The notes: generated by a model not told the origin, from the letters alone. A DNA stretch of 64,000 nucleotides from an uncultured Lentisphaerota bacterium (GCA_900320225.1 ONRL01000038.1:5698-69697), one strand, 5' to 3'; positions 2,491 through 54,468 are shown, counted from the first letter of the stretch. Numbers and translations are program-made.

Positions 2491-3372
2491 ATGAAATTCA
2501 CTTACACATATCGCTCATCCGACGGCGAGCGGCACACGGCCGAGATCGAGGCCGAGAGCCGCGACGCGGCTTTCGCGAAGGTGCGCAGCGAGCTGGGCAT
2601 CAAGCCGATCAAGGTGGTGGCGGCAGGAGATAATGCGACTGATGAAGGAAGCGGCAAGAGTGCCGCTTCCCCGAGGTGGGGAGTCGTTCCTGTCATCGCT
2701 CTTATCGTTACCATCGCTCTTATCGCTCTGGTCGTGTGGTGGTGGTTGAGCGGTCGCGGGGCGACCGCTCCCGCGCAAGAGCCGGCCGCCTACACGGTGA
2801 ACACGCCCCAAGGACCTGTTACGCTGCGCGTGGCCGAGCCATTGCCCCGCCAGATGATACCGGGCAACCGACAGCGGATTGAGGACGACCGCGACAATGT
2901 CTTCACAAACGCCGCAGAAAGGCTGTTGGCGCGTTTCGCAGAACCGGGGCGGGCTGTTGCCGCACCTAAGGGCGAGCAGCCCACGGAGGCCGATTTTGCG
3001 GCCTGCCTGCGCGAGCCGATCCGCGTGGCGTCGAGCGAACTCACCGAGCACATCGACCTTAAGCGGATCGTGTCGGGCATGAAGCGCGAGATGCGGGCGT
3101 ACATCGCCGGAGGCGGTACCATCGACGGTTATCTCGCCGAGCTGGAGAAGCGCCAGAAGCTGGAGGTTTCGTACCGCGAGCGCGCGGAGCAGAAGCTCAA
3201 CGCCATTTTGAACGGGCAAGATGCCCGTTCTCCCAGCGGGCGAGATTCCTTGAAGGCCGCCTACGCCTACTGGCTCAAGGCCAACGCGCAACTTCAGGCG
3301 ATGGGCATCTACCCGCTCGCCCTGCCAGATACTCTCCGCTCCTACCAGATGAGCCTCGACATCGAGGAATAG
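2491..3372 (+). CDS. Family-B bitopic envelope protein (copy I)
   Basis: Start MKFTYTYRSSDGERHTAEIEAESRDAAFAKVRSELGIKPIKV, then one hydrophobic helix (VVPVIALIVTIALIALVVWWWL) and a C-terminal domain ending ..QAMGIYPLALPDTLRSYQMSLDIEE. Close paralog of 11154..12266 and more distant paralog of 8864..9673. Confidence 0.85.
   Translation: MKFTYTYRSSDGERHTAEIEAESRDAAFAKVRSELGIKPIKVVAAGDNATDEGSGKSAASPRWGVVPVIALIVTIALIALVVWWWLSGRGATAPAQEPAAYTVNTPQGPVTLRVAEPLPRQMIPGNRQRIEDDRDNVFTNAAERLLARFAEPGRAVAAPKGEQPTEADFAACLREPIRVASSELTEHIDLKRIVSGMKREMRAYIAGGGTIDGYLAELEKRQKLEVSYRERAEQKLNAILNGQDARSPSGRDSLKAAYAYWLKANAQLQAMGIYPLALPDTLRSYQMSLDIEE
2647..2670. repeat. H1 hairpin repeat (GGAAGCGGCA-AGAG-TGCCGCTTCC)
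   Basis: Perfect 10-bp inverted repeat with a 4-nt loop followed by CCGAG. Lies inside the family-B copy I coding sequence (encodes ..GSGKSAASPR..). Confidence 0.9.
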
Positions 3373-3440
3373 GCTACTAGTTGTAGTTGGGTTAACGGCG
3401 GTTATCGAAAGGAGGCCAAAAAGAAAACCTATTCCTCATG

Positions 3441-3470
3441 TTGACTGCCATGATAGAATTATGATATAAT
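3441..3470 (+). promoter_or_regulatory. Sigma70-like promoter of the antitoxin gene (TTGACT-N18-TATAAT)
   Basis: TTGACT 3441..3446 and TATAAT 3465..3470 in an AT-rich spacer. AAGGAAG RBS precedes ATG 3499. Confidence 0.6.
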
Positions 3471-3498
3471 TCAGTCATCAAAATCAAAGGAAGATTCC

Positions 3499-3762
3499 AT
3501 GTTTGCAACGCAAATAAGACCCGTAACTGACTTGCGGAATCGCTATTCCGAAGTGGAAAGCGATTTGCAGCGCGGACCTGTCGTCCTGACAAAGAACGGC
3601 TATGGCGCGTCCGTACTTGTCAGCATCAGCCTTTACGACAAGCTCATGGCAAAGCAGGCACTTTATGAAGCCATTGCGAGGTCAGAGGCAGAAATCGATG
3701 CAGGAGAGGGACTTGACGCAAAATCTGCACTTGCGAAGATGAGGGCTACGCTTCATGTATAG
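3499..3762 (+). CDS. Phd/YefM-type antitoxin
   Basis: 87 aa. N-terminus IRPVTDLRNRYSEVESDLQRGPVVLTKNGYGASVLVSISLYDKL matches the Phd/YefM antitoxin pattern. Its stop overlaps the start of a ParE/RelE-like ORF. Confidence 0.8.
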   Translation: MFATQIRPVTDLRNRYSEVESDLQRGPVVLTKNGYGASVLVSISLYDKLMAKQALYEAIARSEAEIDAGEGLDAKSALAKMRATLHV

Positions 3763-3913
3763 GGTCGTCATCTCGCCGTCAGCCAATGCCGACTTGTTCA
3801 ACTCGCTCAATTACATCGCCTACAAACTGGGGAATCCACAGGCTGCGACACGACTTGCGGACGGCATTGAAAGGTGCTATGCACATCTTCCATGCGCTAC
3901 AGAACTACCTTGA
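3755..3913 (+). pseudogene. ParE/RelE-family toxin, 3'-truncated remnant (52 codons)
   Basis: My translation is MYRVVISPSANADLFNSLNYIAYKLGNPQAATRLADGIERCYAHLPCATELP*. This is a typical ParE/RelE N-terminus (..A..DL..I..YI......AA..L...I) of about half normal length. ATG 3755 overlaps the antitoxin stop. A degenerate palindrome and a convergent gene follow. Confidence 0.6.
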
Positions 3914-3946
3914 GACTCTCAAAGGCGAAGTCTGATCGCGTTGCTT

Positions 3947-3975
3947 GCGAAAACAGTTGCTGACCTGTTTTGACA
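3947..3975. repeat. Degenerate copy of the CAAAACAGGTC/GACCTGTTTTG palindrome
   Basis: GCGAAAACAGTTGCTGACCTGTTTTGACA. The right arm is intact and the left arm degenerate. Lies between the convergent toxin remnant and the ATPase gene. Confidence 0.6.
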
Positions 3976-3983
3976 ATTTGTTC

Positions 3984-5201
3984 TCAAGCCCCTAAAGCGG
4001 CCAAGGGAACGGCGTAGAAGCCGTTGCCGAAGCGCAACGTCTTGTTGCCGGAATAGAGGACGATTCCGGTAAAAGGCGTCTTGGCGATGTTTTCCGCAAA
4101 CCACTTGAGATGGCGGAAGTCATCCGTAGAAGCCTGTCCCGCCTTGACCTCAACGCCGAGCAATGCGCCGTCCTTTCGCTCGACGATGAAATCGATTTCG
4201 CGCTTGCGGTTGTCCCTGTAGTGCGAGAGGCTGTACCCGCCTTCAGCCTCGGAAATCGCGGCCAGTTGCTGATACACCCATGTCTCGACGAGTTTGCCAC
4301 TCCTGTTCTCGTCCATGTACACGTCGTCCTCGTTCCACCCAAGGACGTTTGCCGCGAGCGCGGAATCCGTTGCAATCCACTTTTCGCGTTTTCCGATCAT
4401 GTCGTAGTCGCTCTTCGTCCACGCGGACACGCTGTCGAAAATGTAAAGGGCCTTCATTGCCTCCATGTAGTTCTGCGCCGTCACCTTCGATATCGCAGCC
4501 TTTGACGCCAGTTCCTCCATTGCGAAGAATTGCGCCGTGTGGGCAAGAAGCCACAATGCGACGGAACGCAGTTCAGGAAGCTTGCGGATTTCCGTCACGT
4601 CCTTGACATCTTTCTCAAGAAGATCGTCCAGATAGACTTCGAACCACTCGCTCCTGGCGTCTGGCGAGTAGGACTGGATTTCCGGGTAGCCGCCGCGAAA
4701 AGCCGCGTGGATCAGGTCCCTTCGTGAAAAGTCACCGTAAAAGGAGTCGAAGTCCCCCGCAAAGGCCCGGCGAAGGAAAAACGGCGGATGGCCGTAGATT
4801 TCCCCTAGGGACAGCGTCCGAAGCCGCACTCTGCCGAGGCGACCGGCGAGCGAGTCCTTGACGGCCTTTGCAAACCGGAGATTCGCGCTTCCAGTGAGGA
4901 GATACTGGCCCGGCGACTGGTCCTTGTCCACGACCATTTTGATCGAATCAAGGACGTCGGGCACCTTTTGCACCTCATCTATGACAATCGACTCGCCATT
5001 GGCATGCTGCACAAATCCGTTCGGGTCGCTTTGGGCGACACCCCGCACCAACTTGTCGTCGAACGTATATCTCCTCGCATGGGGCAAGTCAACCATTCCG
5101 GCAAGGGTCGTCTTGCCGGACTGCCTCGCACCGGTGAGATTCACGCCACGGCGAACCTTCATCATGGCGCTTAACCGAGATGTCTGCCATCGTTCAATCA
5201 T
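3984..5201 (-). CDS. AAA-family ATPase (AAA_14 + DUF4143-type)
   Basis: 405 aa. Walker A in ..LTGARQSGKTTLAG.. and Walker B-like ..ESIVIDEVQKVPD... The overall layout is typical of the widespread ATP-binding DUF4143 family. Confidence 0.85.
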   Translation of the reverse strand: MIERWQTSRLSAMMKVRRGVNLTGARQSGKTTLAGMVDLPHARRYTFDDKLVRGVAQSDPNGFVQHANGESIVIDEVQKVPDVLDSIKMVVDKDQSPGQYLLTGSANLRFAKAVKDSLAGRLGRVRLRTLSLGEIYGHPPFFLRRAFAGDFDSFYGDFSRRDLIHAAFRGGYPEIQSYSPDARSEWFEVYLDDLLEKDVKDVTEIRKLPELRSVALWLLAHTAQFFAMEELASKAAISKVTAQNYMEAMKALYIFDSVSAWTKSDYDMIGKREKWIATDSALAANVLGWNEDDVYMDENRSGKLVETWVYQQLAAISEAEGGYSLSHYRDNRKREIDFIVERKDGALLGVEVKAGQASTDDFRHLKWFAENIAKTPFTGIVLYSGNKTLRFGNGFYAVPLAALGA

Positions 5202-5254
5202 CGTGCTGGTTTCCGCTGAAACACAAGCATTATACCAAGCCCCTGTAAAAATGG

Positions 5255-5307
5255 CAAGTAGGAACGTGTAAAAACGTCAAGTAGACAGGTGCAAAATCTA
5301 CAAGTAG
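5255..5307. repeat. Three CAAGTAG direct repeats at 23-bp spacing (iteron or operator-like)
   Basis: CAAGTAG at 5255, 5278 and 5301, directly upstream of the ATPase start (5201, minus strand). Confidence 0.5.
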
Positions 5308-5654
5308 GCGACATCTCAATTAGAACATCATCTCGCGAATCGGTCTCAATCGCCACTAAAAATGCCCCAAAAATCAGACTTGTTTTACCCCCCAGTTTTG
5401 TATTCATGTCCATACATCAGGTGGATGTCCCCTGTGTACGCGACATCACTTAAATAGCAATAATCGAAGTTGCCGGCAATGTAAATGACATTTTGCGAGG
5501 ATTGGATTGCAAATGAGATTACGGCGCGGAACAACTATTTCCTCTCTCTGCCCCCCAGAGCAAAAAACTTGGGAAGACCGGTTGTGAAACTTGGACTTCG
5601 GGAAGTGCCCGAAGCAAAGAAGAACGCCGGTTGGAACAGGAAAGGAAAAGAAAA

Positions 5655-6365
5655 ATGAAGAAACTTATGTTTGTCGCGGCCGTTGCCGCAGCCTTCGCCG
5701 CATCGGCGGACGGCCTTCAGTCCTCCAACACGGTGGGCTATGGCCAGAACGGCCTTCGGTTTGGCTACAGCCTTGTGACTCCTCAGTTTACGGGTATCGG
5801 TGGCACTGCGCTTTCTTTGGACGCATTGCAAGGCGTTGGTTCAGATGCTTCTGATAATGTGAACTTGGCAATGGTTGACGAATACGGCGCTGCGATTACC
5901 ACGTATACTTGGAATGACTGGGCTGCTGCCGAACCGTGCTGGGTTGATGACTCGTACGCACCAGTGTCGGATGTTACTGTCTCTGCCGGTCAGGCCTTCT
6001 GGACGGGCGGCTCTTCAAGTGATCAGTTGATCCGGTCTGCGGGTGAAGTTTGCTTCCAGGATGTTGTCGTTTCTCTCCGCTTTGGTTATACCTTGGTCGG
6101 TAATCCATTCCCTGTTTCACTTGCATTGCAGGATATCGTTGCAGGCGGTGATGAGGCGTCCGACAATGTTACCATGGCCACAATTGACGAATACGGCGCC
6201 GCAATCACCACATACACTTGGAATGATTGGGCCGCAGCTGAGCCGTGCTGGGTAGATGACTCCTATGCGCCTGTTACGGATGTGACGTTTGCGCCTGGCG
6301 AGGGCCTCTGGACGGGTGGCTCAAATAATTCTCAGTTTGTGCGGTTCCCTGCTCCGGAACTGTAA
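5655..6365 (+). CDS. Secreted protein with internal tandem domain duplication (DUP family, copy II)
   Basis: Start MKKLMFVAAVAAAFAASA (signal peptide). Two ~95-aa repeats both contain ..DEYGAAITTYTWNDWAAAEPCWVDDSYAPV... Paralog of 15581..16242. Confidence 0.8.
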   Translation: MKKLMFVAAVAAAFAASADGLQSSNTVGYGQNGLRFGYSLVTPQFTGIGGTALSLDALQGVGSDASDNVNLAMVDEYGAAITTYTWNDWAAAEPCWVDDSYAPVSDVTVSAGQAFWTGGSSSDQLIRSAGEVCFQDVVVSLRFGYTLVGNPFPVSLALQDIVAGGDEASDNVTMATIDEYGAAITTYTWNDWAAAEPCWVDDSYAPVTDVTFAPGEGLWTGGSNNSQFVRFPAPEL

Positions 6366-6413
6366 GAATTTTGGTGTGTGGCATTGTGCCGCGCATTGAA
6401 TAAAAAAAGGAAA

Positions 6414-6887
6414 ATGAAAATGAAAAAAGTAGTTATTGTGTGTGCGTTGGCGTTTATGGCCTTTGCCGCGAACGCTGCGTCTGTGAAGTGGAATGCCGCC
6501 AACATCTATGGTAGTGATGGTACGACGAAGTTTTCTGGTGTCGTAACTCTCTATTGCACAGAGTTGTCTGACTTCAAGTCAGAAGTAACAGCGTCTAATG
6601 GTGCTGTTCCGGCGACTACCGTAGCGTTGCCAGATTCGGCAGGCGGAACGACGAAGACCTTCTACTTCGTGTTTACCGACAATGGCAAGACCTTCACATC
6701 CGCAGAAAAATCTGTTGCCATTCCTGCGACGGCATCAGCTGGTGTCGCGAATTTTGGCAACATGCAATCGGCAACGCAGAATGCCTCAAACTGGAGCGGC
6801 GGCGGCGGTGACATTCCCGAACCGACGAGCGGTCTCCTGCTCCTCGTGGGTGCGGGCATGCTCGCGTTGCGCCGTAAGCAGAAGTAA
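6414..6887 (+). CDS. PEP-CTERM sorting-domain protein (copy II)
   Basis: Signal peptide MKMKKVVIVCALAFMAFAANA. The C-terminus IPEPTSGLLLLVGAGMLALRRKQK has the PEP motif, a TM helix and a basic tail. Paralog of 15062..15532. Confidence 0.9.
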   Translation: MKMKKVVIVCALAFMAFAANAASVKWNAANIYGSDGTTKFSGVVTLYCTELSDFKSEVTASNGAVPATTVALPDSAGGTTKTFYFVFTDNGKTFTSAEKSVAIPATASAGVANFGNMQSATQNASNWSGGGGDIPEPTSGLLLLVGAGMLALRRKQK

Positions 6888-6908
6888 GTAAGGCGTAATG
6901 CCCGAGGG

Positions 6909-6945
6909 AACGCCCGACCGCTTGTGCGGGCGGGCGTTTTCCTTT
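6909..6945 (+). terminator. Hairpin plus T-run between the PEP-CTERM gene and the family-A gene
   Basis: AACGCCCG..CGGGCGTT stem with inner CCGC/GCGG pairing, followed by TTTTCCTTT. An analogous element occupies the same position in cassette III. Confidence 0.5.
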
Positions 6946-7041: not shown

Positions 7042-8058
7042 ATGACATTCACAGTAACATACCGCGACAAGGACGGCGCATTACGCGAGGAGTGTGTCGA
7101 GGCCGCGAATCGAGCCGAGTGCGTGGCCGCGTGCAAAGAGCGCGGGATTGTGCCGACGGGCATCCGCGAGGGGCGAACTTCTGTTCGTCCGAGAAGCGGC
7201 AGCGCCGCTTCTCGGAGCGCGCAGCAGATCGGAAAGACCAAGCTTATCGCGGCCGTCGTGATTGCTGCCGTGACGTGTGGCATTGGCATTGCGTGGTGGC
7301 TGTGGCCACGAGCCGAACCCCAGCAGGAGGTTCGCCAGCAGCCCAAGAAAGCTGTGACGCCTCCTCCCGTAAAACGGCAGCCCAAGGTCTTAGAACAACC
7401 CTCTCGACCAGCGGAAACGAATGTCGCGCCAACGCCAGAACCAGTCAAGATCGATCCCAATGCACGGCCTGAAAAGGTGGGGGAGACGGTCAACGGCTAC
7501 ATCAAGTTGCCGTCCGGGAGGCTTCATAAGGTGAGAGGGGTCGTGACGAACGACGTCGCGCAGGCCACGCGCGGGAAATATGCCATTTTCGAGCACAACT
7601 GCGAGAATGAAATCGCGTGTTACCTCTCGCTCAAGCCCGGCGACGCGATCTTCGGGACGATGAAGTACAATGGAAGATTCAAGAAAGAATTCCTCAAGTC
7701 GCTGGAAACGCCAATTGTCATAGATCCAGAAGACTCAGACGAGGTCAAGGAGCTGAAACGGAATGTCCGCGACGCCAAGATCCAACTGAAGACTGCGATG
7801 GACAACGGCGAGGACATCGAGAAGATCATGGCGGACACGCGTCGGGAACTGCAGGACCTTGCACGTTACAAGATGGATCTCACGCGGCATCTGCATGACA
7901 TGCGCCATGACGGGAAACTTACGACCGTCGAGGATTTGCAGGACGCAGTCGACGCCGCCAACAAGATGCTGGAGGCCAGAGGAATCGCCCCGATGAAATT
8001 CGGGCCGCTCGTCCGCCAGAAGATGTTGATGGAACTTGAAAAGGAACAGAAGAAATGA
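7042..8058 (+). CDS. Family-A bitopic envelope protein (copy II)
   Basis: Start chosen at MTFTVTYRDKDGALREECVEAANRAECVAACKERGIVPTGI by homology to 13932..14924. One TM helix (LIAAVVIAAVTCGIGIAWWLW), a Pro-rich linker and a C-terminal domain. ATGA overlap with the next gene. Confidence 0.8.
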   Translation: MTFTVTYRDKDGALREECVEAANRAECVAACKERGIVPTGIREGRTSVRPRSGSAASRSAQQIGKTKLIAAVVIAAVTCGIGIAWWLWPRAEPQQEVRQQPKKAVTPPPVKRQPKVLEQPSRPAETNVAPTPEPVKIDPNARPEKVGETVNGYIKLPSGRLHKVRGVVTNDVAQATRGKYAIFEHNCENEIACYLSLKPGDAIFGTMKYNGRFKKEFLKSLETPIVIDPEDSDEVKELKRNVRDAKIQLKTAMDNGEDIEKIMADTRRELQDLARYKMDLTRHLHDMRHDGKLTTVEDLQDAVDAANKMLEARGIAPMKFGPLVRQKMLMELEKEQKK

Positions 8059-9798: not shown

Positions 9799-9850
9799 CC
9801 TTCCTATGCGTTCACAGCCGCTTCGATGCGCTTGCGGCCGCAAAGGAGCA

Positions 9851-11153: not shown

Positions 11154-12266
11154 TTACTCGTCGATGTCGAGGGACATCTGGTAGGAGCGGAGGGCGTCGG
11201 GCAGGGCGAGCGGGTAGATGCCCATCGCCTGAAGCTGCGCGTTGGCTTTCAGCCAGTAGGCGTAGGCGGCCTTCAGGGAATCTCGCCCACTGGGAGAACG
11301 GGTATCTTTCTCGTTCAACATGTCGTTGAGCTTCTGCTCCGCGCGCTCGCGGTACGAAACCTCCAGCTTCTGGCGCTTCTCCAGCTCGGCGAGATACTGC
11401 TCAACCGTGCCGCCTCCGGCGATGTAGGCCCGCAGTTCGCGCTTCATGCCGGTGACGATGCGTTTGAGGTCAACCACCTCCGTGAAGTCCGTCGAGGCGA
11501 TGCGGATCGGCTCGCGCAGGGCGGCCTCGAAATCGGCCGGTATCGGCCGCGCCGCATGTGAAGCGGCGAGAGCGCCGCTTCCCCGAAGGGTACCGACGTT
11601 GGATGAAGCGCCGCCTCCCCGAGGGGAAGCCGACTCTCGGGGAAGCGACACTCCTGTCGCTTCACCCGGCGCGAGGGTCGCCGGTGGTGTCTCAAGAGTC
11701 GCGGGCGGCTGCCGCCCTGGCTCGGCATAGCGCGCGAGCCACCTCTCGGCCGCGAATTTGAACACGCCGTTGGTCGGTTGGGATTTCGCCTCGCTGGAAG
11801 AAAGGGCATCGCGCCCGTTCATCGCTCCTTCAATTCTTCGCCTGTCGCCCGGTATCATCTGGCGGGGTAATGGCTCGGCCACGCGCAGTGTCACCGGCCC
11901 CTGCGGGGTCGTGACCGTGATCGGCTGGTCGGAGTTGGCTGCGGGCAATTCGCCGTTCGGGCGTCGCATCCACCACACCACGCCGCCGAGGACGGCGGCG
12001 AAAAGAACAACGGCCGCGACGAGGAGATTGCGCTTCTTGAATGAAGCGGCGAGAGCGCCGCTTCCCCGAGGGGAGCCGCTATTCGGGGAAGCGGCACTCT
12101 TGCCGCTTCCTTCATCAGTCGCATTATCTCCTGCCGCCACCACCTTGATCGGCTTGATGCCAAGCTCGGTCCGTATCTTGGCAAACGCCGCGTCGCGGCT
12201 CTCGGCCTCGATCTCGGCCGTGTGCCGCTCACCATCGGACGAGCGGTATGTGTAGGTGAACTTCAT
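11154..12266 (-). CDS. Family-B bitopic envelope protein (copy III, expanded by hairpin repeats)
   Basis: Start at MKFTYTYRSSDGERHTAEIEAESRDAAFAKIRTELGIKPIKV. Ends ..QAMGIYPLALPDALRSYQMSLDIDE. Longer than copy I because of segments containing four H1 repeats. Confidence 0.85.
   Translation of the reverse strand: MKFTYTYRSSDGERHTAEIEAESRDAAFAKIRTELGIKPIKVVAAGDNATDEGSGKSAASPNSGSPRGSGALAASFKKRNLLVAAVVLFAAVLGGVVWWMRRPNGELPAANSDQPITVTTPQGPVTLRVAEPLPRQMIPGDRRRIEGAMNGRDALSSSEAKSQPTNGVFKFAAERWLARYAEPGRQPPATLETPPATLAPGEATGVSLPRESASPRGGGASSNVGTLRGSGALAASHAARPIPADFEAALREPIRIASTDFTEVVDLKRIVTGMKRELRAYIAGGGTVEQYLAELEKRQKLEVSYRERAEQKLNDMLNEKDTRSPSGRDSLKAAYAYWLKANAQLQAMGIYPLALPDALRSYQMSLDIDE
11560..11581. 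repeat. H1 hairpin repeat
   Basis: GAAGCGGCG-AGAG-CGCCGCTTC followed by CCCGAAG, inside the family-B copy III CDS. Confidence 0.85.
11642..11663. repeat. H1-like hairpin repeat (variant arms)
   Basis: GAAGCGACA-CTCC-TGTCGCTTC preceded by CTCGGG, inside the family-B copy III CDS. Confidence 0.75.
12043..12064. repeat. H1 hairpin repeat
   Basis: GAAGCGGCG-AGAG-CGCCGCTTC followed by CCCGAGG, inside the family-B copy III CDS. Confidence 0.85.
12087..12110. repeat. H1 hairpin repeat (opposite orientation)
   Basis: GGAAGCGGCA-CTCT-TGCCGCTTCC preceded by TTCGGG. It is the orthologous copy of the repeat at 2647..2670. Confidence 0.9.
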
Positions 12267-16263: not shown

Positions 16264-16288
16264 GGTCGCGCAGGAGCGCGACCCTCCC
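16264..16288. repeat. H2 hairpin repeat (reverse orientation)
   Basis: GGTCGCGC-AGGA-GCGCGACC followed by CTCCC, in the 5' leader of the DUP copy III gene. Confidence 0.85.
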
Positions 16289-16418
16289 TTTTTTGCTCTG
16301 GGGGGCAGAGTGAAGAAATACGCTCTGTGTTGGAGAGGAGGGAAATTGGCCGAATCTGCTCCGGTGGCGAAGCCGGTGCGGGTAAAATATCCGCTTCACC
16401 ATAAAGAAAGGACAACAA

Positions 16419-18935: not shown

Positions 18936-20018
18936 ATGAAAGAGTATGGAAACGGATGTTTCTTGAAACGCGCAGGACGAGTTGCCGCAGTTGCGTGTGG
19001 CATTGTCTTGCTTTTGGTTGTCGCCGGATGCGCGACGGCGCCGGAGCTGTCGCTCTGGCGCGACGAAGCGCCGGCGAAGAAGGCGTTGCTGGAGTACGTG
19101 GAGGCCGTGACGGACACAGGATCGCCCGACTACATCCCCCCGGCGGCGCGCGTGGCCGTGTTCGACTTCGACGGCACGCTCTTCTGCGAAACCGATCCCA
19201 CCTACTTCGACTGGTTGCTGTTCGAGCACCGCGTGCTGGACGATCCGTCCTACAAACCCACGGGCGAGCAGCGCCAGGCCGCCATCGCCTCGCGCACGCG
19301 CACGTCCATCCCGGGCCTCACGCCCGACCGCGAACGGCTGATCGTGGAGGTCTACAAGGGGATGACGCTTGACGAGTTCGCCGCCTACGTGCGCGCGTTC
19401 ATGGAGGAGCCGCAGCCCGGCTTCACGGGACTGAAGCGCGGCGCGGCGTACTACCTGCCGATGCTGGAGGTCGTGAAACTGCTGATGGCGAAGGATTTCC
19501 GCGTGTACGTGTGCAGCGGGTCGGACCGTCTGCTCCTGCGCGAGGTGGTGCCGCCCGTGATCGACTTGCCGCCGGACCGGCTCATCGGGTCCGACAGCGC
19601 GATCGTCGCGCGCGGGCAGAACGGACGCGACGGCCTCGCCTACACGTACCGTCAGGACGACGCGCTCGTGATGGGCGGGAAGAGCGTGATCAAGAACCTG
19701 CAGATGAACAAGGTGCCTGCGATCATCCGCGAAATCGGCGTGCAGCCCGTGCTCGCCTTCGGCAACAGCTTCTCCGACGCGAGCATGCTCAACTACACGC
19801 TCTCGCGCAACCCGCACAAGGCGCTCGGGTTCATGCTCCTCTGCGACGACACCGAACGCGAGTACGGCAATCTGGCGAAGGCGCGGAAGGTGCGCGAGGC
19901 CTGCGGGCCGAACGGCTGGATTCCGGTCTCCATGAAGGACGATTGGACGACGATCTATGGTGACGGCGTGAAGCGGAAGGAAGCGGCAGGAGTGCCGCTT
20001 CCCCGAGAAAAGAAGTGA
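18936..20018 (+). CDS. HAD-superfamily hydrolase lipoprotein
   Basis: Start at MKEYGNGCFLKRAGRVAAVACGIVLLLVVAGC (lipobox). HAD motif I VAVFDFDGTLF, motif II-like VYVCSGSD and motif IV-like AFGNSFSDASM. The listed ORF start 18732 lies in the RAYT flank. Confidence 0.75.
   Translation: MKEYGNGCFLKRAGRVAAVACGIVLLLVVAGCATAPELSLWRDEAPAKKALLEYVEAVTDTGSPDYIPPAARVAVFDFDGTLFCETDPTYFDWLLFEHRVLDDPSYKPTGEQRQAAIASRTRTSIPGLTPDRERLIVEVYKGMTLDEFAAYVRAFMEEPQPGFTGLKRGAAYYLPMLEVVKLLMAKDFRVYVCSGSDRLLLREVVPPVIDLPPDRLIGSDSAIVARGQNGRDGLAYTYRQDDALVMGGKSVIKNLQMNKVPAIIREIGVQPVLAFGNSFSDASMLNYTLSRNPHKALGFMLLCDDTEREYGNLAKARKVREACGPNGWIPVSMKDDWTTIYGDGVKRKEAAGVPLPREKK
19979..20002. repeat. H1 hairpin repeat
   Basis: GGAAGCGGCA-GGAG-TGCCGCTTCC followed by CCGAG. 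It forms the last codons (..EAAGVPLPREKK*) of the HAD lipoprotein ORF. Confidence 0.9.
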
Positions 20019-20570: not shown

Positions 20571-20664
20571 AAACGGCACTAACTGGGAAAACGGCCATAT
20601 TGGAGGCTGAAAAGGCGAGATAGGTGTTGGTGAGATTACGGTGCGGAACGGTCGAGCCTTCAAC

Positions 20665-20689
20665 GGGAGGGCCGCGCTCCTGCGCGGCC
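20665..20689. repeat. H2 hairpin repeat
   Basis: GGGAGG-GCCGCGC-TCCT-GCGCGGC, intergenic. Confidence 0.9.
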
Positions 20690-20744
20690 GCCCGGCGCGA
20701 GGTGCGCCAGTGAGATTATGGTGCGGAACGGTCGAGCCTTCAAC

Positions 20745-20769
20745 GGGAGGGCCGCGCTCCTGCGCGGCC
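20745..20769. repeat. H2 hairpin repeat
   Basis: Identical to 20665..20689 (second unit of the 80-bp tandem repeat). Confidence 0.9.
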
Positions 20770-24729: not shown

Positions 24730-25587
24730 ATGGCCGGCGTGGACGCGGAACGGATCGGCGTGTGCAGCTGGAGCTACCAGCGCCCGCTGCGTGAGGTCGC
24801 CGACGAGATGGCGAAGATCGGCGTGAAGGGCATCGACCTCGCCCTCACGCCCTTCGTGGCGCCGGACGGGCGGCACGGCGTGGAGGAGGGCGAGGAGGCG
24901 CTCGCGTTCGCGAAGGCGCAGTTCGCGAGCGGCGCGTGGCGTCTCTTCGCCACGATGATCTCCTTCCCGCAGGAAGACTACTCCACGCTCGACACCATCC
25001 GCAAGACGGGCGGCGTGGTGCCGGACGACTGCTGGCCGCGCAACCGCGAGATCGCGGCGGCGGCGGCCGAGCTGTCCGGCACCCTCGGCGCGCCGTACAT
25101 GCTCTTCCACGCCGGCTTCCTCGACGAGTCGAACCCCGCGGCCTACGCCGCGTACGTGGAGCGCGTCTCCTTCGTGCGCGACGCCTGCGCGCGCGCGGGC
25201 GTGCAACTGATCCTCGAATCCGGCCAGGAGACGGCGGAAGACCTCGCGCGCTTCCTGCGCGACGTGCCCGGCCTCTACGTCAACTTCGACCCCGCGAACA
25301 TGATCCTCTACGGGAAGGGGCGTCCGATGGAGGCGCTCGAGACGCTCGTGCCGTGGATCCGGAAGATCCACGTGAAGGACGCGGACGCGACCGCCGTGCC
25401 GGGCACGTGGGGCACGGAGCGTCCGTGGGGCGAAGGCCAGGTGGGCGGTGCGGCGTTCATCGATGCGCTGAACGGCCTCGGCTTCACGGGAAACATGACA
25501 ATTGAAAGAGAAGGCGGAGACGACCGCGTGGGCGACATTGCCCGCGCCGCCGCGCGCCTGCGGGAGGGCCGCGCTGCCGCGCTGTAA
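24730..25587 (+). CDS. Xylose-isomerase-like TIM-barrel protein (sugar phosphate isomerase/epimerase family)
   Basis: 285 aa. ..YMLFHAGF.., ..LILESGQETAEDLARFL.., ..VNFDPANMILYG.. and ..IHVKDA.. are typical of the AP_endonuc_2 family. Confidence 0.8.
   Translation: MAGVDAERIGVCSWSYQRPLREVADEMAKIGVKGIDLALTPFVAPDGRHGVEEGEEALAFAKAQFASGAWRLFATMISFPQEDYSTLDTIRKTGGVVPDDCWPRNREIAAAAAELSGTLGAPYMLFHAGFLDESNPAAYAAYVERVSFVRDACARAGVQLILESGQETAEDLARFLRDVPGLYVNFDPANMILYGKGRPMEALETLVPWIRKIHVKDADATAVPGTWGTERPWGEGQVGGAAFIDALNGLGFTGNMTIEREGGDDRVGDIARAAARLREGRAAAL
25562..25584. repeat. H2 hairpin repeat, degenerate
   Basis: GGGAGGGCCGCGCTGCCGCGCTG. It forms the last codons (..LREGRAAAL*) of the TIM-barrel ORF. 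Confidence 0.6.
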
Positions 25588-25591
25588 AATC

Positions 25592-25616
25592 GGGAGGGCC
25601 GCGCTCCTGCGCGGCC
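25592..25616. repeat. H2 hairpin repeat
   Basis: GGGAGG-GCCGCGC-TCCT-GCGCGGC, intergenic. Confidence 0.9.
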
Positions 25617-29548: not shown

Positions 29549-31981
29549 ATGCGGCTTCTGGCGGCCATCTTGCTGACTGCTGGGACGGCGTTCGGCGCGA
29601 CGGACGTGACGTTCCTCATGTGCTACAGTCCGCAGATCCTCCGCTTCACGGCGGCGCATCCCGAAATCCGTCCGTTCAAGTGGGGCGGCCTCACCCTCCC
29701 CGGCGGCGGCGGACGCGCCGCGTTCATGCTCGCGCTCGCGGGCGGCACGGCGCCGGACGTCTACAAGGCCTGGTTCCACATCCTGCGCCACGACATCGAC
29801 GAGGGGTTCTGCCATCCGCTCAACGAATGGCTCGGCGACGACGCGGACGGCGACGGCAAGCTCTCCGACGCCGAAGCGAAGTGGCCCGGCTGGAAGGACG
29901 TGCCGCAGCTCTGGCGTGACGTGGCGACGAAGGAGGGCAAGGTCTATGCCGTCCCCACGCCCGGCTTCGCCTATTACGGCATCGTCTACCGCAAGGACCT
30001 CGTGAAGGCGGCCGGCCTCGACCCCGAGAACCCGCCGCGCACGTGGGATGCGTTTGCCGACTGGTGCCGCAAGCTCACGTTCGCGGACAAGACGATCCCC
30101 GGTGCGACGGTGCAGCGCGGCCAGCGCGCGTTCGCGATCGAGAACCGTCCCTGGGGTTTCCTGCCGTGGGTGGGCGCGGCCGGCGGAGATGTGATTAGAA
30201 TGGGGAACGGGGAACGGGGAACGGGGAACGGGGAACGGGGAATGGGGAATGGGGAACAAACCTGGGAGGCGTGCTTTGATTCGCCGGAGTGTTTGCGCGC
30301 GGCGAAGTTTCTGCAGGGGCTGATCGCGGACGGCGTCGTGCGCGCGCTGCCGCAGCTTTCGATGTCGAACGAGGTCGCGGACATGTTCGTGAACGGCGAG
30401 ATCGTGAGCGTGTTCGGCGGCGAGGATCTCGTGGTGTACCTCACGGAACGGCTCAATTTCCCGTCCGAGCAGATCGGTCTCATGCCGTTTCCGGCGGCGG
30501 ACGAGAACTGTCGTCCGGTGCTTCAGGCGCACAAACACTTTTACGCGATGACGGAAGGCGTGGGGCGGCGTCCGAAAGAGGAGCGCGACGCGGTGTGGGC
30601 GTGCGTGGAGCAACTTGCGTCCGGCGAGGTATATGACGAGACGGTGCGCAAGAACGTGGCGGAGGGTCGTGCGCGGTGGTGTCTGCCGGCCGACCTCAAG
30701 CGCCTCGGTTTCGACGAACACCTCGCGGAGGTGCCGCCCGGCATCCGCCAGATGTACGACGACCTCGCGGCGGGTCGCATCCGCGCGGTGACGGAGCCGT
30801 ACATGGGGTTCTGGCAGGCGGCGAGCGATCTCGTGAGCCGTCGGTTCCTCGGCATCCTCCTCAGCGACGCGGGAAAGGACCTCGACTGCGCCGCCGCGCT
30901 GAAGTCGATCTCGGACGACGCGAACCGCGGGCTTATGTTCGATGCGGACAAGGAGCGCATTGAAAAGGCGCGTCCCGTGGCGCGCGTGGTGCTCGGCGTG
31001 CTGGTGATCTGCGTGCTCGCGTGTGTCTGGCTCGTCATCAAAGCGGGAGGGTCGCGCTCCTGCGCGACCGAAAAGTCGGGAGGGTCGTGCTTGTCGCGAC
31101 CTCTGAGTCGGCGGTTGCTCCCTTGGCTCTTTCTTTTACCCGCGATCGTTTCCATCGCGCTGTGGAGCTACTGGCCGCTCGTGCGCGGCGCGCTGATGGC
31201 GTTCCAGGACTACCGCATCGTGGGCGCGGGCACGTGGGAGGGGCTGGACAACTTCATCCGCGTGGCGTCCGACCCCGGCTTCTGGAAGGCGTGGGGGCGC
31301 ACGCTCCAGTACGTCGTGATCACGCTTGCGCTCGGATTCGTCTCGCCGATCATCCTCGCCTTGTTGCTGAGCGAGATTCCGCGCGGGAAGGTGTTCTTCC
31401 GCACGGTCTACTTCCTGCCGCATCTCACGAGCGCGCTCGTGGTCACGCTCATGTGGAAGATGATGTTCGATCCCACGGAGAACGGCATGCTCAACCAGGC
31501 GCTCGCGTGGTTCGGCGTGGGACGGCACGCCTGGCTGCAGGATCCGGCGTGGGCGATGACGTGCTGCATCCTGCCGGGCGTGTGGGCGGGGATGGGCACG
31601 GCGTCGCTGATCTACATCGCGGCGCTCGGGTCGCTGCCGCCGGACTACTACGAGGCGGCGGCGATCGACGGCGCGGGCATCTTCGCGCGTTTCCGGCACG
31701 TGACGCTGCCGCAGCTCCTGCCGCTCATGGTGATCAACTTCGTGGGCGCGTTCATCGCGGCGTTCCAGGGCATGGGATCGATCTTCCTCCTCACCTTCGG
31801 CGGACCGGGCGACGCGACGAACGTGCTCTCGCTCGTGATCTGGAAGGAGGCCTACAACAACCTGCGCTTCTCCACGGCCACGACGATGGCGTGGTTTCTC
31901 GGCACCGCCCTCATCGCGTTCACGTACCTCCAGATACGTTTCCTCCGCCGTGTCGAGTTCCGCCAGGCCGCCGCGAACTGA
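29549..31981 (+). CDS. Fusion: ABC-transporter solute-binding domain + TM linker + MalF/UgpA-type permease domain
   Basis: ATG at 29549 (MRLLAAILLTAGTAFGA signal). An SBP-like ~480 aa is followed by a TM helix (VVLGVLVICVLACVWLVI), a linker containing two H2 repeats, and a six-TM permease with the EAA motif (YEAAAIDGAGIFARFRHVTLPQL). Confidence 0.75.
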   Translation: MRLLAAILLTAGTAFGATDVTFLMCYSPQILRFTAAHPEIRPFKWGGLTLPGGGGRAAFMLALAGGTAPDVYKAWFHILRHDIDEGFCHPLNEWLGDDADGDGKLSDAEAKWPGWKDVPQLWRDVATKEGKVYAVPTPGFAYYGIVYRKDLVKAAGLDPENPPRTWDAFADWCRKLTFADKTIPGATVQRGQRAFAIENRPWGFLPWVGAAGGDVIRMGNGERGTGNGERGMGNGEQTWEACFDSPECLRAAKFLQGLIADGVVRALPQLSMSNEVADMFVNGEIVSVFGGEDLVVYLTERLNFPSEQIGLMPFPAADENCRPVLQAHKHFYAMTEGVGRRPKEERDAVWACVEQLASGEVYDETVRKNVAEGRARWCLPADLKRLGFDEHLAEVPPGIRQMYDDLAAGRIRAVTEPYMGFWQAASDLVSRRFLGILLSDAGKDLDCAAALKSISDDANRGLMFDADKERIEKARPVARVVLGVLVICVLACVWLVIKAGGSRSCATEKSGGSCLSRPLSRRLLPWLFLLPAIVSIALWSYWPLVRGALMAFQDYRIVGAGTWEGLDNFIRVASDPGFWKAWGRTLQYVVITLALGFVSPIILALLLSEIPRGKVFFRTVYFLPHLTSALVVTLMWKMMFDPTENGMLNQALAWFGVGRHAWLQDPAWAMTCCILPGVWAGMGTASLIYIAALGSLPPDYYEAAAIDGAGIFARFRHVTLPQLLPLMVINFVGAFIAAFQGMGSIFLLTFGGPGDATNVLSLVIWKEAYNNLRFSTATTMAWFLGTALIAFTYLQIRFLRRVEFRQAAAN
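30202..30257 (+). repeat. Heptanucleotide microsatellite (GGGGAAY) x 8 inside a CDS
   Basis: Eight contiguous units (five GGGGAAC, two GGGGAAT, one GGGGAAC) encode ..MGNGERGTGNGERGMGNGE... Confidence 0.95.
31045..31069. repeat. H2 hairpin repeat (variant arms)
   Basis: GGGAGG-GTCGCGC-TCCT-GCGCGAC, inside the SBP-permease linker (..GGSRSCAT..). Confidence 0.85.
31078..31101. repeat. H2-like hairpin repeat (variant)
   Basis: GGGAGG-GTCGTGC-TTGT-CGCGACC, 8 nt after the previous copy, inside the same linker (..GGSCLSRP..). Confidence 0.7.
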
Positions 31982-50946: not shown

Positions 50947-51036
50947 GGAGAGGTGGCAGAGCCTGGTTGAATGCACATGACTCGAAATCATGCATACCGC
51001 AAGGTATCGGGGGTTCGAATCCCTCCCTCTCCGCCA
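50947..51036 (+). tRNA. tRNA-Ser (anticodon CGA)
   Basis: Acceptor GGAGAGG/CCTCTCC, anticodon arm CATGA-CTCGAAA-TCATG, long variable arm (ATACC-GCAA-GGTAT), T loop TTCGAAT, encoded CCA. Confidence 0.9.
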
Positions 51037-51038
51037 AG

Positions 51039-51112
51039 GCGGGCGTAATTCAATGGCAGAATAGGAGCTTCCCAAGCTTCTTACGTGGGTTCGATTCCCA
51101 TCGCCCGCTCCA
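51039..51112 (+). tRNA. tRNA-Gly (anticodon CCC)
   Basis: Acceptor GCGGGCG/CGCCCGC, D arm ATTC..GAAT, anticodon arm GGAGC-TTCCCAA-GCTTC, T arm GTGGG-TTCGATT-CCCAT, encoded CCA. A T-run follows. Confidence 0.9.
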
Positions 51113-51790: not shown

Positions 51791-54468
51791 CCCTGCACCT
51801 GGACATCATTTCCGAAGAAGCGGCAAGAGTGCCGCTTCCCCGAACGGCCGCGTTCCGCGGGGAGCGGCCTGCGGGGTTGGAAGGAACCCCCGAGCCGCTT
51901 GTGGGGGATGAACTGCTGGAGGCGGTGCGCGAGGTGGTGTGGTTCAAAGATGAGGTTCTGCTGGAAGGGGATCGTGCCGTTCCCTCCATGCAGAACCTCC
52001 TGATGTTCCTCTCCGACGTGCGGACGCGCCGCTTCAAGGCGGGCGTGTTCCTCGGAGACGACGTGCGGACGGCGGCCGAGACTTTTCGCGCCGCCGCGCG
52101 CACCGTCGCCGATGGTGCGTACTTGCCGCATCTCGTGGAGGAGGGCGACGGCTTCGCCGCGAGGTGGTTGCCGCTTGACGCGTCGCACGGCGCGTTCTTT
52201 GTGCGGCTCGTGGACGGTCTCGCGCGCTTCGGCGGGCGCACGCCGCTCGAGACGGGCGCGGTGCGTCCCGATACGGTGCACGATGCCTGGTTGCACGCGC
52301 TCCGCAGCGACAACGGACGCGTGGCATGGCCGGATGAAGGCGAGATCCGCATGCTCATGCACGACCTCGCCGTGTGGCGCGCGCCGCTGCGCATCTCCGC
52401 CGCCGACCGCGCCGCGCTGCGCTTCTCCCTCGAGCCGCCTGCGGCCGAAGATGGTACGTGGCGGCTACGCCTCGCGTCCGCGCCCCGCACGCGCGCGGGA
52501 CTCGTCTCGCTTGGCCAGGCCGCCTCCCTCTTCCCGCCGCTTGCCGCGCTCCACGGCACCGAGGCCGAACTCGACCGCGCGGCGGCGGAGTCGTTCCTCC
52601 GTACGGGCGCGCAGGCGCTTTCCGCCGCCGGCTACGCGGTGGACCAGCCGCCCGGCTTGCTCGGCGAACACATCGCCGCCGAGGCCGACCTCACGCCCGT
52701 TTCCGATGCGCCGTCCGCGCCCGTCACGACGAAGCTCACGATCCGCGTGGACGGACAGGTCGTCAGCGAGCAGGAGATCAAGTTCCTCCTCGACCAGAAT
52801 TCCCCGTTCGTCTATTTCCGCGACCACTGGATCGAGGTCGACCGCGCCGTGTTGCGCGAGGCTTTGCGCGCGCTGCGCGACGTGAAGGGGAAGAAGGTGC
52901 CCGTCCACGACGCGATCGCGCTCGCCTTCGGTCTCCGCCGCGCCGGGGGACTCCGCGTGGACCACGTGCGCGCGCACGGCTGGCTGCGCGGTCTCCTCAA
53001 CGAACTGCGCGGCGAGGAACGTTTCCGCGTGCTGGAGGCGCCCGCCGACTTCAACGGCACCTTGCGCGACTACCAGTTGCGCGGCACGAGCTGGCTTGCC
53101 TTCCTCGCGAAGTGGGGGTTCGGGGCGTGCCTGGCGGACGACATGGGCCTCGGCAAGACGGCACAGGCGATCGCCTTCATCCTCCACCGCCGAGCCCCGC
53201 GTCCCGCGCTCGTCGTGGCGCCGGTCTCGGTGACGACGAACTGGACGCGCGAGCTCGCCCGCTTCGCGCCGTCGCTGAAAGTCTACCTCCACCAGGGACC
53301 GGAGCGTTTCATGGGCAGCGCCTTCAACAAGACCTGCCGCGAGGTGGATGTGGTCGTGACGGGCTACGCCCTCTTCGCGAAGGACTTCACGCTCTTCGCC
53401 GAGAATGTGTTTTCGGCACTCGTGCTCGACGAGGCGCAGACGGTCAAAAACCCCGACACGCGCATCTCCCGCGCCGTCCGCGCGCTCAACGTGCCGGTGC
53501 GCGTGGCACTGACCGGCACGCCGCTCGAAAACAGCGCGGACGACCTCTGGGCGCTGGAATCCTTCCTCAACCCAGGGCTGCTCGGCGAGCGACGCGCGTT
53601 CGCCGACGCCTTCACGCGCGCGCTCCGCACGGACGCCCACGCCGGCGCGGCGTCGCGTCTCCGGCACATCCTCGAGCCGTTCATGCTCCGCCGCCTCAAG
53701 ACCGACCCCGGCATTGCCGCCGAACTCGGCGACCGGCGCGAAATCCGCGAGTGGTGCACGCTTGACCCACGCCAGCGCGCGCTCTACGAATCGGCGCTCG
53801 CCACGTTCCGCGCAGAAATGGCCGAGGTGGCGGACTCCCGCGTCCGCAACACCCGCCAAGGCCGCGTGCTCGCGTTGCTCACCAAGTTGAAGGAAATCTG
53901 CGATTCCGCCGCGCTCGTGGAGGGCGGCGGCGACGCGGACGGCGGGAAGGTGCGTCGCCTCGACGAGCTGCTCGATTCGATCTTTGACGCGGGCGAAAGC
54001 TGTCTCGTGTTCACGCAGTACGCGCGGATGGGACGTCTCCTGCGCGCGCATCTGCAGGAGCGGTTCGGCCGCCGGTTCCCGTTCCTGCACGGAGGCCTCA
54101 CGCCCGGACAGCGCGAGGAGGAGATCGCCGCGTTCAACGGCGATCCCGAGCCGAACGCGTTCATCCTCTCGCTGAAGGCGGGCGGGTTCGGCCTCAACCT
54201 CACGCGCGCGACGCACGTGATCCACTTCGACCGCTGGTGGAACCCCGCCGTGGAGAACCAGGCCACGGACCGCGCGCACCGCATCGGACAGCTGCGCGAC
54301 GTGTTCGTGCACCTGTTCATCTGCGCGGGCACGCTGGAGGAGCGCGTGGACGAGCTGCTGGAGTCGAAGCGGCACCTGGCGGGCGAGATCGTGGGCAGCG
54401 GCGAGTCGTTCCTGCTGAAGATGTCGGAACAGGAGTTTGAAAGGATGGTGTCGCTCGATGGGGAGTAG
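51784..54468 (+). CDS. SNF2-family helicase (DEAD/H-like ATPase + helicase C)
   Basis: ..LRDYQLRGTSWL..CLADDMGLGKTAQAIAF.. (motif I), ..VLDEAQTVKN.. (motif II), ..LTGTPLENS.. and ..LKAGGFGLNLTRATHVIHFDRWWNPAVENQATDRAHRIGQ.. (motifs V-VI). Confidence 0.9.
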   Translation: MLTLHLDIISEEAARVPLPRTAAFRGERPAGLEGTPEPLVGDELLEAVREVVWFKDEVLLEGDRAVPSMQNLLMFLSDVRTRRFKAGVFLGDDVRTAAETFRAAARTVADGAYLPHLVEEGDGFAARWLPLDASHGAFFVRLVDGLARFGGRTPLETGAVRPDTVHDAWLHALRSDNGRVAWPDEGEIRMLMHDLAVWRAPLRISAADRAALRFSLEPPAAEDGTWRLRLASAPRTRAGLVSLGQAASLFPPLAALHGTEAELDRAAAESFLRTGAQALSAAGYAVDQPPGLLGEHIAAEADLTPVSDAPSAPVTTKLTIRVDGQVVSEQEIKFLLDQNSPFVYFRDHWIEVDRAVLREALRALRDVKGKKVPVHDAIALAFGLRRAGGLRVDHVRAHGWLRGLLNELRGEERFRVLEAPADFNGTLRDYQLRGTSWLAFLAKWGFGACLADDMGLGKTAQAIAFILHRRAPRPALVVAPVSVTTNWTRELARFAPSLKVYLHQGPERFMGSAFNKTCREVDVVVTGYALFAKDFTLFAENVFSALVLDEAQTVKNPDTRISRAVRALNVPVRVALTGTPLENSADDLWALESFLNPGLLGERRAFADAFTRALRTDAHAGAASRLRHILEPFMLRRLKTDPGIAAELGDRREIREWCTLDPRQRALYESALATFRAEMAEVADSRVRNTRQGRVLALLTKLKEICDSAALVEGGGDADGGKVRRLDELLDSIFDAGESCLVFTQYARMGRLLRAHLQERFGRRFPFLHGGLTPGQREEEIAAFNGDPEPNAFILSLKAGGFGLNLTRATHVIHFDRWWNPAVENQATDRAHRIGQLRDVFVHLFICAGTLEERVDELLESKRHLAGEIVGSGESFLLKMSEQEFERMVSLDGE
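51816..51837. repeat. H1 hairpin repeat
   Basis: GAAGCGGCA-AGAG-TGCCGCTTC followed by CCCGAAC, at codons ~11-18 of the SNF2 ORF (..EEAARVPLPR..). Confidence 0.9.

Follow-up and report, generated by a model that had tools for sequence, protein, structure and literature searches.

H1 and H2, probable REP-type hairpin repeats lying in frame inside genes of uncultured rumen and gut Kiritimatiellae

Repetitive extragenic palindromic (REP) and REPIN elements, as known from E. coli, Pseudomonas and Stenotrophomonas, are G+C-rich hairpins of 20-40 nt that carry a tag at one end, occur as dispersed copies and inverted dimers, form several families per genome and, in a minority of copies, lie in frame in open reading frames (ORFs). 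Parts of Di Nocera et al. (2013; PMC3733652) describe REP super-families with end tags (GTAG, CGTC), inverted dimers and REPtrons, the layout in which the gene of a REP-associated tyrosine transposase (RAYT) is flanked by its own REPs. According to the same parts, most REPs are intergenic, and intragenic REPs are most numerous in Opitutus terrae and Rickettsia conorii, the former, a bacterium of the Planctomycetes-Verrucomicrobia-Chlamydiae (PVC) group, having the most intragenic REPs of the GTAG type. Intragenic dimers in these and other species encode 20-30 residues, the targets include tRNA synthetases and repair genes, and neutrality in linkers has been proposed (PMC3733652, in part); in-frame repeat fusions have been reviewed by Delihas (2011; PMC3184786). 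We analysed 64,000 nt of DNA from an uncultured Lentisphaerota bacterium (GCA_900320225.1 ONRL01000038.1:5698-69697; the whole stretch is called the window below), in which an earlier note made from the sequence alone had pointed out two families of hairpin repeats, H1 and H2. Both families share all of the REP/REPIN traits listed above, and in related genomes H1 shares the REPtron layout as well. They differ from the described super-families in their tags, (TC)GGGG or GGGAGG, in their host lineage, uncultured rumen Kiritimatiellae, for which REPs are not described in the literature searched, in an intragenic share of about one third by a crude count, and in the occurrence of different families at one codon site in orthologues. 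The tag and the host lineage set this case apart, the genic share and the site turnover probably do so too, and intragenic REPs themselves have been described before.

GGGG-initiated repeats are also on record around TIRYT genes, RAYT-like tyrosine transposase genes flanked by inverted repeats that contain GGGGWSAS, some of them self-complementary and arranged in dimers or clusters (text to Figure 9 of PMC3733652). Neither H1 (GGGGAAGC) nor H2 fits GGGGWSAS exactly, and kinship with TIRYT, compared by that description, is no more than a lead. Rickettsia palindromic elements (RPE; Ogata et al., 2000, cited in PMC3184786 and PMC3733652) are likewise in-frame palindromic selfish repeats in many genes, housekeeping genes included. 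In the passages on them in these two papers RPE-1 has a length of ~105-146 bp and no known transposase, whereas H1 and H2 are ~27-nt units associated with a RAYT; RPE-4 and RPE-6, which are short, have been re-classified as CGTC REPs (PMC3733652, in part). H1 and H2 lack the RPE unit of ~100-150 bp and share only the in-frame behaviour of that class. Elhai and colleagues reportedly described, in 2008, cyanobacterial small dispersed repeats (SDR), mobile hairpins of 21-27 nt found in many contexts including the inside of genes; we know of no transposase associated with them, and to our knowledge their phylum and sequences differ from those of H1 and H2.

We think it quite probable that H1 and H2 are REP-type elements of rumen and gut Kiritimatiellae, most likely multiplied by RAYT and persisting in frame in genes. 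The assignment to the REP/REPIN type follows because H1 clusters flank a RAYT gene, because a distant RAYT is accompanied by a co-varying hairpin, and because most of 80 further RAYT loci share the same layout. One genome per species was scanned for exact matches to GGGGAAGCGRCRCTCYYGYCGCTTC, which gave more than 110 stretches (the H1 loci); loci from these genomes and from metagenome contigs are numbered here with the prefix L. When all ORFs of the H1 loci were compared with a profile that combined Y1 transposases with E. coli RayT, a single one stood out, at 2383-3009 of L047. It encodes 208 residues and matches Pfam Y1_Tnp with 38.7 bits (cutoff 23), NCBIfam REP_Tyr_transpos with 62.8 bits (equivalog cutoff 80) and E. 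coli RayT at 9e-6 by phmmer; the motifs NLPHW and HUH (MPNHVHVLF) were found by eye, and its homologues bear the JGI name 'REP element-mobilizing transposase RayT'. Near-identical H1 triplets lie on both sides of the gene (2209-2340 and 3019-3130), and homologues with 99%, 68% and 69% identity, on independent metagenome contigs, also have H1 clusters on both sides (the RAYT loci concerned are L047 and L120-L125). A homologue with 54% identity has a diverged hairpin on its flanks (GGGGAAGCGGAATCCCTTCCGCTT / GAAGCGGCACGCCCGCTTC). On this evidence H1 is a REP family with a putative cognate RAYT in related genomes. By eye the RAYT gene of L047 looks clearly lower in G+C than its surroundings and the flanking repeats, which hints at a foreign origin or different constraints.

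Scanning metagenome contigs with a profile of the RAYT clade returned 80 loci, all of at most 46% identity. Most of them have hairpins on both sides of the gene, with a purine tag, a stem of 7-10 bp and a pyrimidine-rich loop of 3-5 nt (YYCY), and their tags form a continuum from GTAG through GGAG and GGGAG to GGGG. For instance, L128 is H1-like, and L200 and L202 are H2-like (TGGGAG followed by CGCAGGCG-TCCC-CGCCTGCG). As these profile relatives reach no more than 46% identity, what they display is the general REP architecture, and no RAYT of canonical H2 is among them. H2 does co-occur with H1, and in L124 H2-like hairpins adjoin the H1 cluster that lies upstream of the RAYT gene.

The unit common to both families is ~27 nt long and consists of a purine tag, (TC)GGGG for H1 and (C)GGGAGG for H2, a G+C-rich stem of 8-10 bp and a CTCY or TCCT loop. 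Pattern searches of the 64 kb (H1 with mismatches, H2 with a threshold of 3 mismatches) recovered all seven H1 sites of the earlier note, GGGGAAGCGGCA-CTCT-TGCCGCTTC, with 0-2 mismatches on the tag-bearing strand, against no match in 100 dinucleotide-preserving shuffles of the window. For H2, CGGGAGGGYCGCGC-TCCT-GCGCGRCC, five of the seven claimed sites are canonical (expected number, 0.04). The other two did not stand as such: 25561 amounts to half a copy, its right arm broken and 3 mismatches present, and 31078 is the loop variant GGGAGGGTCGTGC-TTGT-CGCGACC, outside the 3-mismatch threshold, which belongs to a 'CTTGT-loop' subfamily present in other genomes too. A hairpin scan of the window added REP-like copies that the earlier note did not have (Table 1). 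Both families form stable hairpins (-13.1 kcal/mol and z = -6.3 for H1), and the inverted H1 pair at 12036-12116 folds as a single long hairpin of -35 kcal/mol (z = -9.8). TCGGGG...CTTC measures 27 nt, a multiple of three, which might help the unit itself to preserve a reading frame, and neither consensus has a stop codon in any of the six frames.

All 80 H1 loci listed of the 110 are from gut or rumen metagenome-assembled genomes (MAGs), of at least 17 assemblies, labelled Kiritimatiellae, Lentisphaerae, Verrucomicrobia or 'uncultured bacterium'. An identical 25-mer recurs in at least 17 species amid unrelated flanks and host genes. The flank consensus of 159 oriented H1 copies is (T/A/C)TC directly before GGGG, and the copies are very often arranged head-to-head (CTTCCCCGA-N10-18-TCGGGGAAG) or tail-to-tail. 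Stem covariation is near-perfect: pair 12/17 is AT in 118 copies, GC in 45 and non-Watson-Crick in 2, and pair 10/19 is GC in 106, AT in 53 and non-Watson-Crick in 6. The H1 loci, which were not chosen for H2, contain 24 more H2-type hairpins (GGAGGG-NCGCGC-loop-GCGCGN), whose stems also covary, and the orthologous signal peptides of L019 and L101 differ by a compensated double stem change, GGCA/TGCC versus GGCG/CGCC. At the gathering threshold, Rfam 15 has no family for the hairpins and gave five tRNAs only in the window. CRISPR was rejected on the irregular spacing of the copies, selection of a protein-level repeat on the use of all six frames and on the intergenic copies, and an intrinsic (rho-independent) terminator on the lack of a consistent T-run behind the hairpin in the flanks of the 14 window copies and on the many intragenic copies; among the 14, a T-run accompanies 16264 only, and there it is on the strand that does not bear the tag.

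Elsewhere than in the window, H1 is found within single uninterrupted ORFs in which Pfam domains flank the copy or one domain match spans it. Such genes encode PurL (copies at residues 688 and 703), LeuS (385 and 399, within the editing-domain match), GatA (63, within the amidase match), MetH (in a linker), an ABC-F ATPase, and a lacZ-like GH2 beta-galactosidase with four copies in a linker. The PurL gene of L065 (3-3290), from another MAG, has two H1 copies as well as runs of GNSGKSGNSGKSG and SGKSGKSGKSGK, which may be expanded remnants of the SGKS-encoding frame of H1 or independent low-complexity inserts. Genic calls were made with a home-made, crude gene finder based on codon usage (a greedy ORF model with 68% coding coverage), which replaced an earlier sliding test for coding flanks on both sides that scored only 36% of random sites as coding. 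By this finder 59 of 165 H1 copies are genic (~36%, against 67% of random positions), a depleted share that is far from negligible, as are 11 of 29 H2-type hairpins, which behave alike; these numbers are rough because H1 was the criterion by which the loci were chosen and orthologues contribute several times. Of the genic H1 copies, 31 are set 30 or more codons in from either end of a gene with a strong score. Genic H1 copies are oriented 31 sense and 28 antisense, and all six frames occur, unevenly: GSGxLAAS is encoded by 18 copies, SGKSAASP by 16, GEAALxPL by 11, EAARVPLP and KRQECRFP by 6 each and GKRHSCRF by 2. The bias to frames with Gly/Ser/Ala translations agrees with purifying selection at the level of the peptide. 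Intragenic copies often adjoin transmembrane (TM) helices or signal peptides (family B, the permease fusion described below, L019, L046, L101 and L057).

Within the window, the family-B ORFs 2458-3372 (B1) and 11154-12293 (B2) are paralogues that align end to end. B2 differs from B1 by extra in-frame H1 blocks, namely a second hairpin beside the shared one and a ~138-nt block with three hairpins; a degenerate copy lies between the B2 copies at 11560 and 11636..11666. The family (Pfam PF28597) has 515 homologues of 290-438 residues, conserved end to end. H1-derived heptapeptides, 0-5 in each protein, are present in 30 of the 120 members listed, with hot spots at residues ~50-75 and ~190-245, and most members have clean empty sites; the B2 mid-linker block is missing from B1 too. 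ORF 29408-31981 encodes SBP_bac_1, a TM helix and BPD_transp_1 in one uninterrupted frame, and the fusion appears genuine, not a missed stop codon, because the arrangement is conserved in the orthologue of L012 (78% identity), in which the frame is also open and the linker has no H2. The coding context that the earlier note gave for H2 at 31045 and 31078, in this linker, was right, as was its placing of 16264, 20665, 20745 and 25592 in leaders or intergenic DNA (16264, 20664, 20744 and 25591 in our search); the copy at 25591 is missing from the related locus L079, where the upstream gene differs. Its statement that all seven H1 copies lie in real ORFs holds for 2647, 11560, 11642, 12043 and 12087. 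At 19979, alignments of homologues with the 360-residue product of the HAD-family gene end at its residues 346-349, often where the homologue itself ends, so that this copy is a 12-residue tail extension, KEAAGVPLPREKK. At 51816 the start codon is uncertain: the SNF2 ORF from ATG 51784 is open both in the window and in L037, which has the same H1 copy and differs by an additional H2-like hairpin of 30 nt and by an indel of 3 nt, both with the frame kept, and the sequence around the copy is poorly conserved between the two, and the copy may lie upstream of a true TTG or GTG start further downstream.

Filled and empty sites were compared by a gapped all-against-all blastn, which gave one case only, and, with better results, by a flank-pair approach. 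In the linker homologous to that of ORF 6898-8058, the codons that hold H1 in L001 and L058 are taken up in L111 by an H2-like hairpin. At one further site L042 has an H1 pair, and L041 has clustered hairpins of a third family with a GGGG tag, GGGGTGGCGGGCC. L004 differs from L073 by an additional H2-like hairpin between its H1 copies, and in L014 a repeat pair is tandemly duplicated (66 nt). Such turnover fits either renewed landing at copies already in place or their conversion. The presence/absence comparison of orthologues that the earlier note proposed thus found homologues polymorphic in family B, in the permease fusion and at the flank-pair sites. With no H1 copy given by chance and with homologues polymorphic for the insertions, neither of the two outcomes that the note held to be fatal, counts at chance level and ancestral coding sequence, is what we found. 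Its interpretation was right in substance, and partly supported in detail. That H1 and H2 are one mobile hairpin class agrees with their shared tag, stem and loop layout and with the RAYT association. The statement that they belong to no named repeat family fails on their REP/REPIN anatomy, on the RAYT-flanking H1 clusters of related genomes and on the in-frame REPs in parts of the literature (PMC3733652); the REP/RAYT identity is what it missed. Of its phrase 'tolerated in, or recruited to', the first half is borne out by in-frame copies in flexible segments and at gene termini, and for recruitment the Gly/Ser/Ala frame bias is the sole support.

We propose that RAYT-class HUH/Y1 tyrosine transposases multiply and homogenise H1 and H2. 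By analogy with E. coli RayT and IS200/IS605, the enzyme would recognise the folded hairpin and its tag on single-stranded DNA and copy or move it, with its own gene sitting between clusters of its REPs. Single copies and clusters whose added length is divisible by three would survive in flexible linkers, loops, signal-peptide or juxtamembrane segments and gene ends, and those in genes would persist as inserts of 9-50 residues; since each unit is short and G+C-rich and none of its six frames contains a stop codon, such additions at flexible sites should not be lethal. RAYT is on this account the presumed mobilising enzyme. A more far-reaching version, in which REP/RAYT of this lineage invades coding sequence unusually often, revisits the same linker codons and is a major ongoing source of linker and indel variation, with Gly/Ser/Ala frames retained and hairpins kept by RAYT homogenisation or an RNA role, is tentative, and we lean against it.

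Three other explanations bear on parts of this evidence. Reading the intragenic copies as an annotation artefact of a G+C-rich genome, with the ORFs through them spurious, misstarted or misfused, is highly improbable: Pfam domains flank or span copies in uninterrupted ORFs of PurL, LeuS, GatA, MetH and GH2, the repeats of family B lie between parts conserved in all 515 homologues, and the permease fusion has no stop codon in two species. For internal copies it is already refuted. What keeps it in view is that long spurious ORFs do arise in such DNA (199 ORFs of at least 100 residues per 64 kb), that the HAD copy does no more than lengthen the tail and the SNF2 copy may lie ahead of the real start, that RAYT ORF P0121 was called at 262 residues through upstream H1 copies against 208 from the first ATG, and that parts of Di Nocera et al. 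caution that many N-terminal 'intragenic' REPs are misannotations (PMC3733652). The hairpins might instead be selected in place as RNA elements (attenuators, 3' stabilisers, pause sites before membrane segments or protein-binding sites) and their spread be secondary. Compensatory changes that keep the stems, the copies at gene ends or in leaders (19979, 25592, 16264), the many intragenic copies beside TM helices or signal peptides, and the action of REPs elsewhere as RNA stabilisers or terminators (PMC3733652, in part) would all suit such a role, which some copies may have in addition. As a general account it is quite unlikely, given the balanced intragenic orientations in all six frames, the lack of a consistent T-run or an Rfam match, the 25-mer shared across species amid unrelated host genes, and the clustering of copies round a transposase gene.

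Spread and turnover might also proceed without RAYT, through recombination, gene conversion, slippage at hairpins or another enzyme, the association then reflecting a landing preference of the REPs or of the transposase gene. The occupation of one codon site by different hairpin families according to species (L001/L058 versus L111; L042 versus L041) speaks for this, as do the tandem duplication in L014, the 80-nt tandem repeat with H2 at 20630-20810, the CGTC-type REPs that have no associated transposase in parts of PMC3733652, and the lack of a RAYT for H2 in the loci scanned. We consider it unlikely, since one RAYT clade is H1-flanked on both sides in several contexts, a diverged RAYT goes with a diverged hairpin, and the tag and hairpin layout is common to most of the 80 RAYT loci. 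Several observations do weigh against the account of H1 and H2 that we propose. No RAYT flanked by canonical H2 was found among the H1 loci and the 80 RAYT-profile loci, the links between H2 and RAYT consisting only of the H2-like hairpins of L124 and of H2-like REPs at unrelated RAYTs, and no H1- or H2-flanked RAYT lies within the window, whose only Y1 transposase-like gene is of a different clade, with a third palindrome, H3, on its flanks (see below). Both RAYT-like proteins, that of L047 and that of the window, score under the 80-bit equivalog cutoff of NCBIfam, and the tags are not those of the GTAG and CGTC super-families. Neither a clean mobile unit nor a target site emerged when filled sites were compared with empty ones, the boundaries of the B2 insert taking in ~48 nt of non-REP sequence. 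The genic fractions come from a home-made finder that covers 68% of the DNA, at loci chosen for H1 and with orthologous copies that are not independent, and the intragenic copies are presumably translated and neutral as read from DNA alone.

H1 and H2 are not a new kind of element; what the REP/RAYT assignment provides is a name and a likely enzyme for repeats that litter an abundant uncultured rumen lineage. Metagenome assemblies break at the repeats, and the contigs recovered with RAYT or family-B genes are mostly of only 1-3 kb. Clusters of the repeats also mislead gene callers into extending ORFs, as with RAYT P0121, at the HAD tail and possibly at the start of SNF2. They also provide natural cases of short selfish hairpins fixed in essential genes, which bear on insertion tolerance and on REP/RAYT target choice. 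The copies and other features of the window are collected in Table 1.

Table 1. Hairpin repeats and repeated gene cassettes in the window, with the start of the pattern match where one was obtained
Feature	Position	Match start	Strand	Context (basis)
H1	2645..2675	2648	-	family-B1 juxtamembrane linker (ORF 2491-3372); reads ..GSGKSAASPR.. (pattern search, B1/B2 comparison, homologue alignment)
H1	11557..11587	11560	-	mid-linker insertion of family-B2 ORF 11154-12293 (minus strand); reads RGSGALAAS
H1, GACA/TGTC stem variant	11636..11666	11639	+	B2 mid-linker insertion block; reads GEATGVSLPR
H1, left half of head-to-head REPIN-like pair	12040..12070	12043	-	B2 juxtamembrane linker (pattern search, fold of pair)
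H1, right half of B2 head-to-head pair	12082..12112	12085	+	counterpart of B1 copy 2647 (B1/B2 alignment)
H1	19977..20007	19980	-	C-terminal extension of HAD-family gene ending at 20018 (homologue alignments)
H1	51814..51844	51817	-	between rpe stop codon (51790) and conserved SNF2 body (ORF open from ATG 51784)
H1-like degenerate palindrome GAGAAGCGGCAGCGCCGCTTCTC	7188..7216		.	juxtamembrane linker of ORF 6898-8058 (hairpin scan)
H2	16264..16289	16264	-	5' leader, 22 nt upstream of minus-strand signal-peptide gene starting at 16242 (pattern search)
H2	20664..20689	20664	+	unit 1 of 80-nt intergenic tandem repeat upstream of GDSL/GH43 gene (pattern search)
H2	20744..20769	20744	+	unit 2 of 80-nt tandem repeat upstream of GDSL/GH43 gene (pattern search)
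H2 degenerate half copy	25561..25586	25561	+	last ~8 codons and stop of TIM-barrel gene (24730-25587)
H2	25591..25616	25591	+	intergenic, after TAA 25585, before ATG 25634
H2	31044..31069	31044	+	in frame, linker of fused SBP-permease ORF 29408-31981, after C-terminal TM helix of SBP part
H2-like variant (TTGT loop, one stem mismatch)	31077..31101		+	linker of fused ORF 29408-31981
H2-like hairpin GAGCGGTCGC-GGG-GCGACCGCTC + CCGC	2748..2770		.	family-B1 ORF, after TM helix (hairpin scan)
REP-like copy	3210-3230			(hairpin scan)
H2-like hairpin GGTCGCG-GCAAG-CGCGACC + CTCTCGG	59375..59393		-	codons ~10-16 of ORF 59346-61265 (hairpin scan)
H3	17427-17455, 18662-18686, 18709-18737			at RAYT-like gene
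H3	11126-11148, 28230-28257			at gene ends
NYN-domain genes	1685-2356, 9851-10723, 12394-13074			cassette of 1-16300
'MKFTVTYR...' TM family, related	6898-8058, 13932-14924			cassette of 1-16300
Secreted proteins	788-1648, 8055-8864, 13111-13935			cassette of 1-16300
PEP-CTERM proteins	6378-6887, 15062-15568			cassette of 1-16300

The window's own Y1_Tnp/RAYT-like gene is ORF 17595-18725 (+), which has a C-terminal winged-helix (wHTH) domain and matches Pfam Y1_Tnp with 28.3 bits (cutoff 23), in its N-terminal half only, and the NCBIfam model with 55.2 bits (cutoff 80). Its family, a separate clade of ~355-residue proteins, numbers over 560. H3, a palindrome (AAAACAGGTCWGACCTGTTTT / TTGCAAAACAGGTCWGACCTGTTTTGCAA) that is neither H1 nor H2, flanks the gene in the window and in the homologous loci L111-L117; in the fetched DNA exact H3 is limited to these RAYT-like loci and the five window copies, and other species have none in their 110 H1 loci. 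Since it runs on through two H3 copies, the window ORF is ~20 residues longer than its homologues. As tblastn of its protein gave no match in the 110 H1 loci, and with H3 on its flanks, the gene goes with H3 and not with H1 or H2. The arrangement shows at least two apparently REP-like systems in this genome. The H3 copies at gene ends lie between A-runs and T-runs and resemble bidirectional intrinsic terminators. Immediately upstream of the RAYT-like gene, at 17455-17530, are repeated inverted motifs (ATTATCACGTG / CACGTGATAAT) that are kept in L111 and L117 and are possibly operators for the gene's own wHTH domain.

The intergenic tandem repeat at 20630-20810 consists of ~2.3 units of 80 nt, with one H2 per full unit. 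Its motif GAGATTAYGGYGCGGAAC recurs at 5515-5532, upstream of the PEP-CTERM-type gene at 5631, with a near copy in L117, and may be a promoter or regulatory box. Positions 1-16300 of the window are lower in G+C (55-59%) and hold repeated gene cassettes on both strands (Table 1), which also include family B (PF28597). The small secreted-protein ORF 28323-28793 contains 4-5 tandem 63-nt repeats (28434-28748) encoding 21-residue units of the type TYRDAMGR.xGTxxTDxYGKT. The tRNA genes form two clusters, Gly(GCC)-Lys(CTT)-Phe(GAA) at 37667-37935 and Ser(CGA)-Gly(CCC) at 50947-51112.

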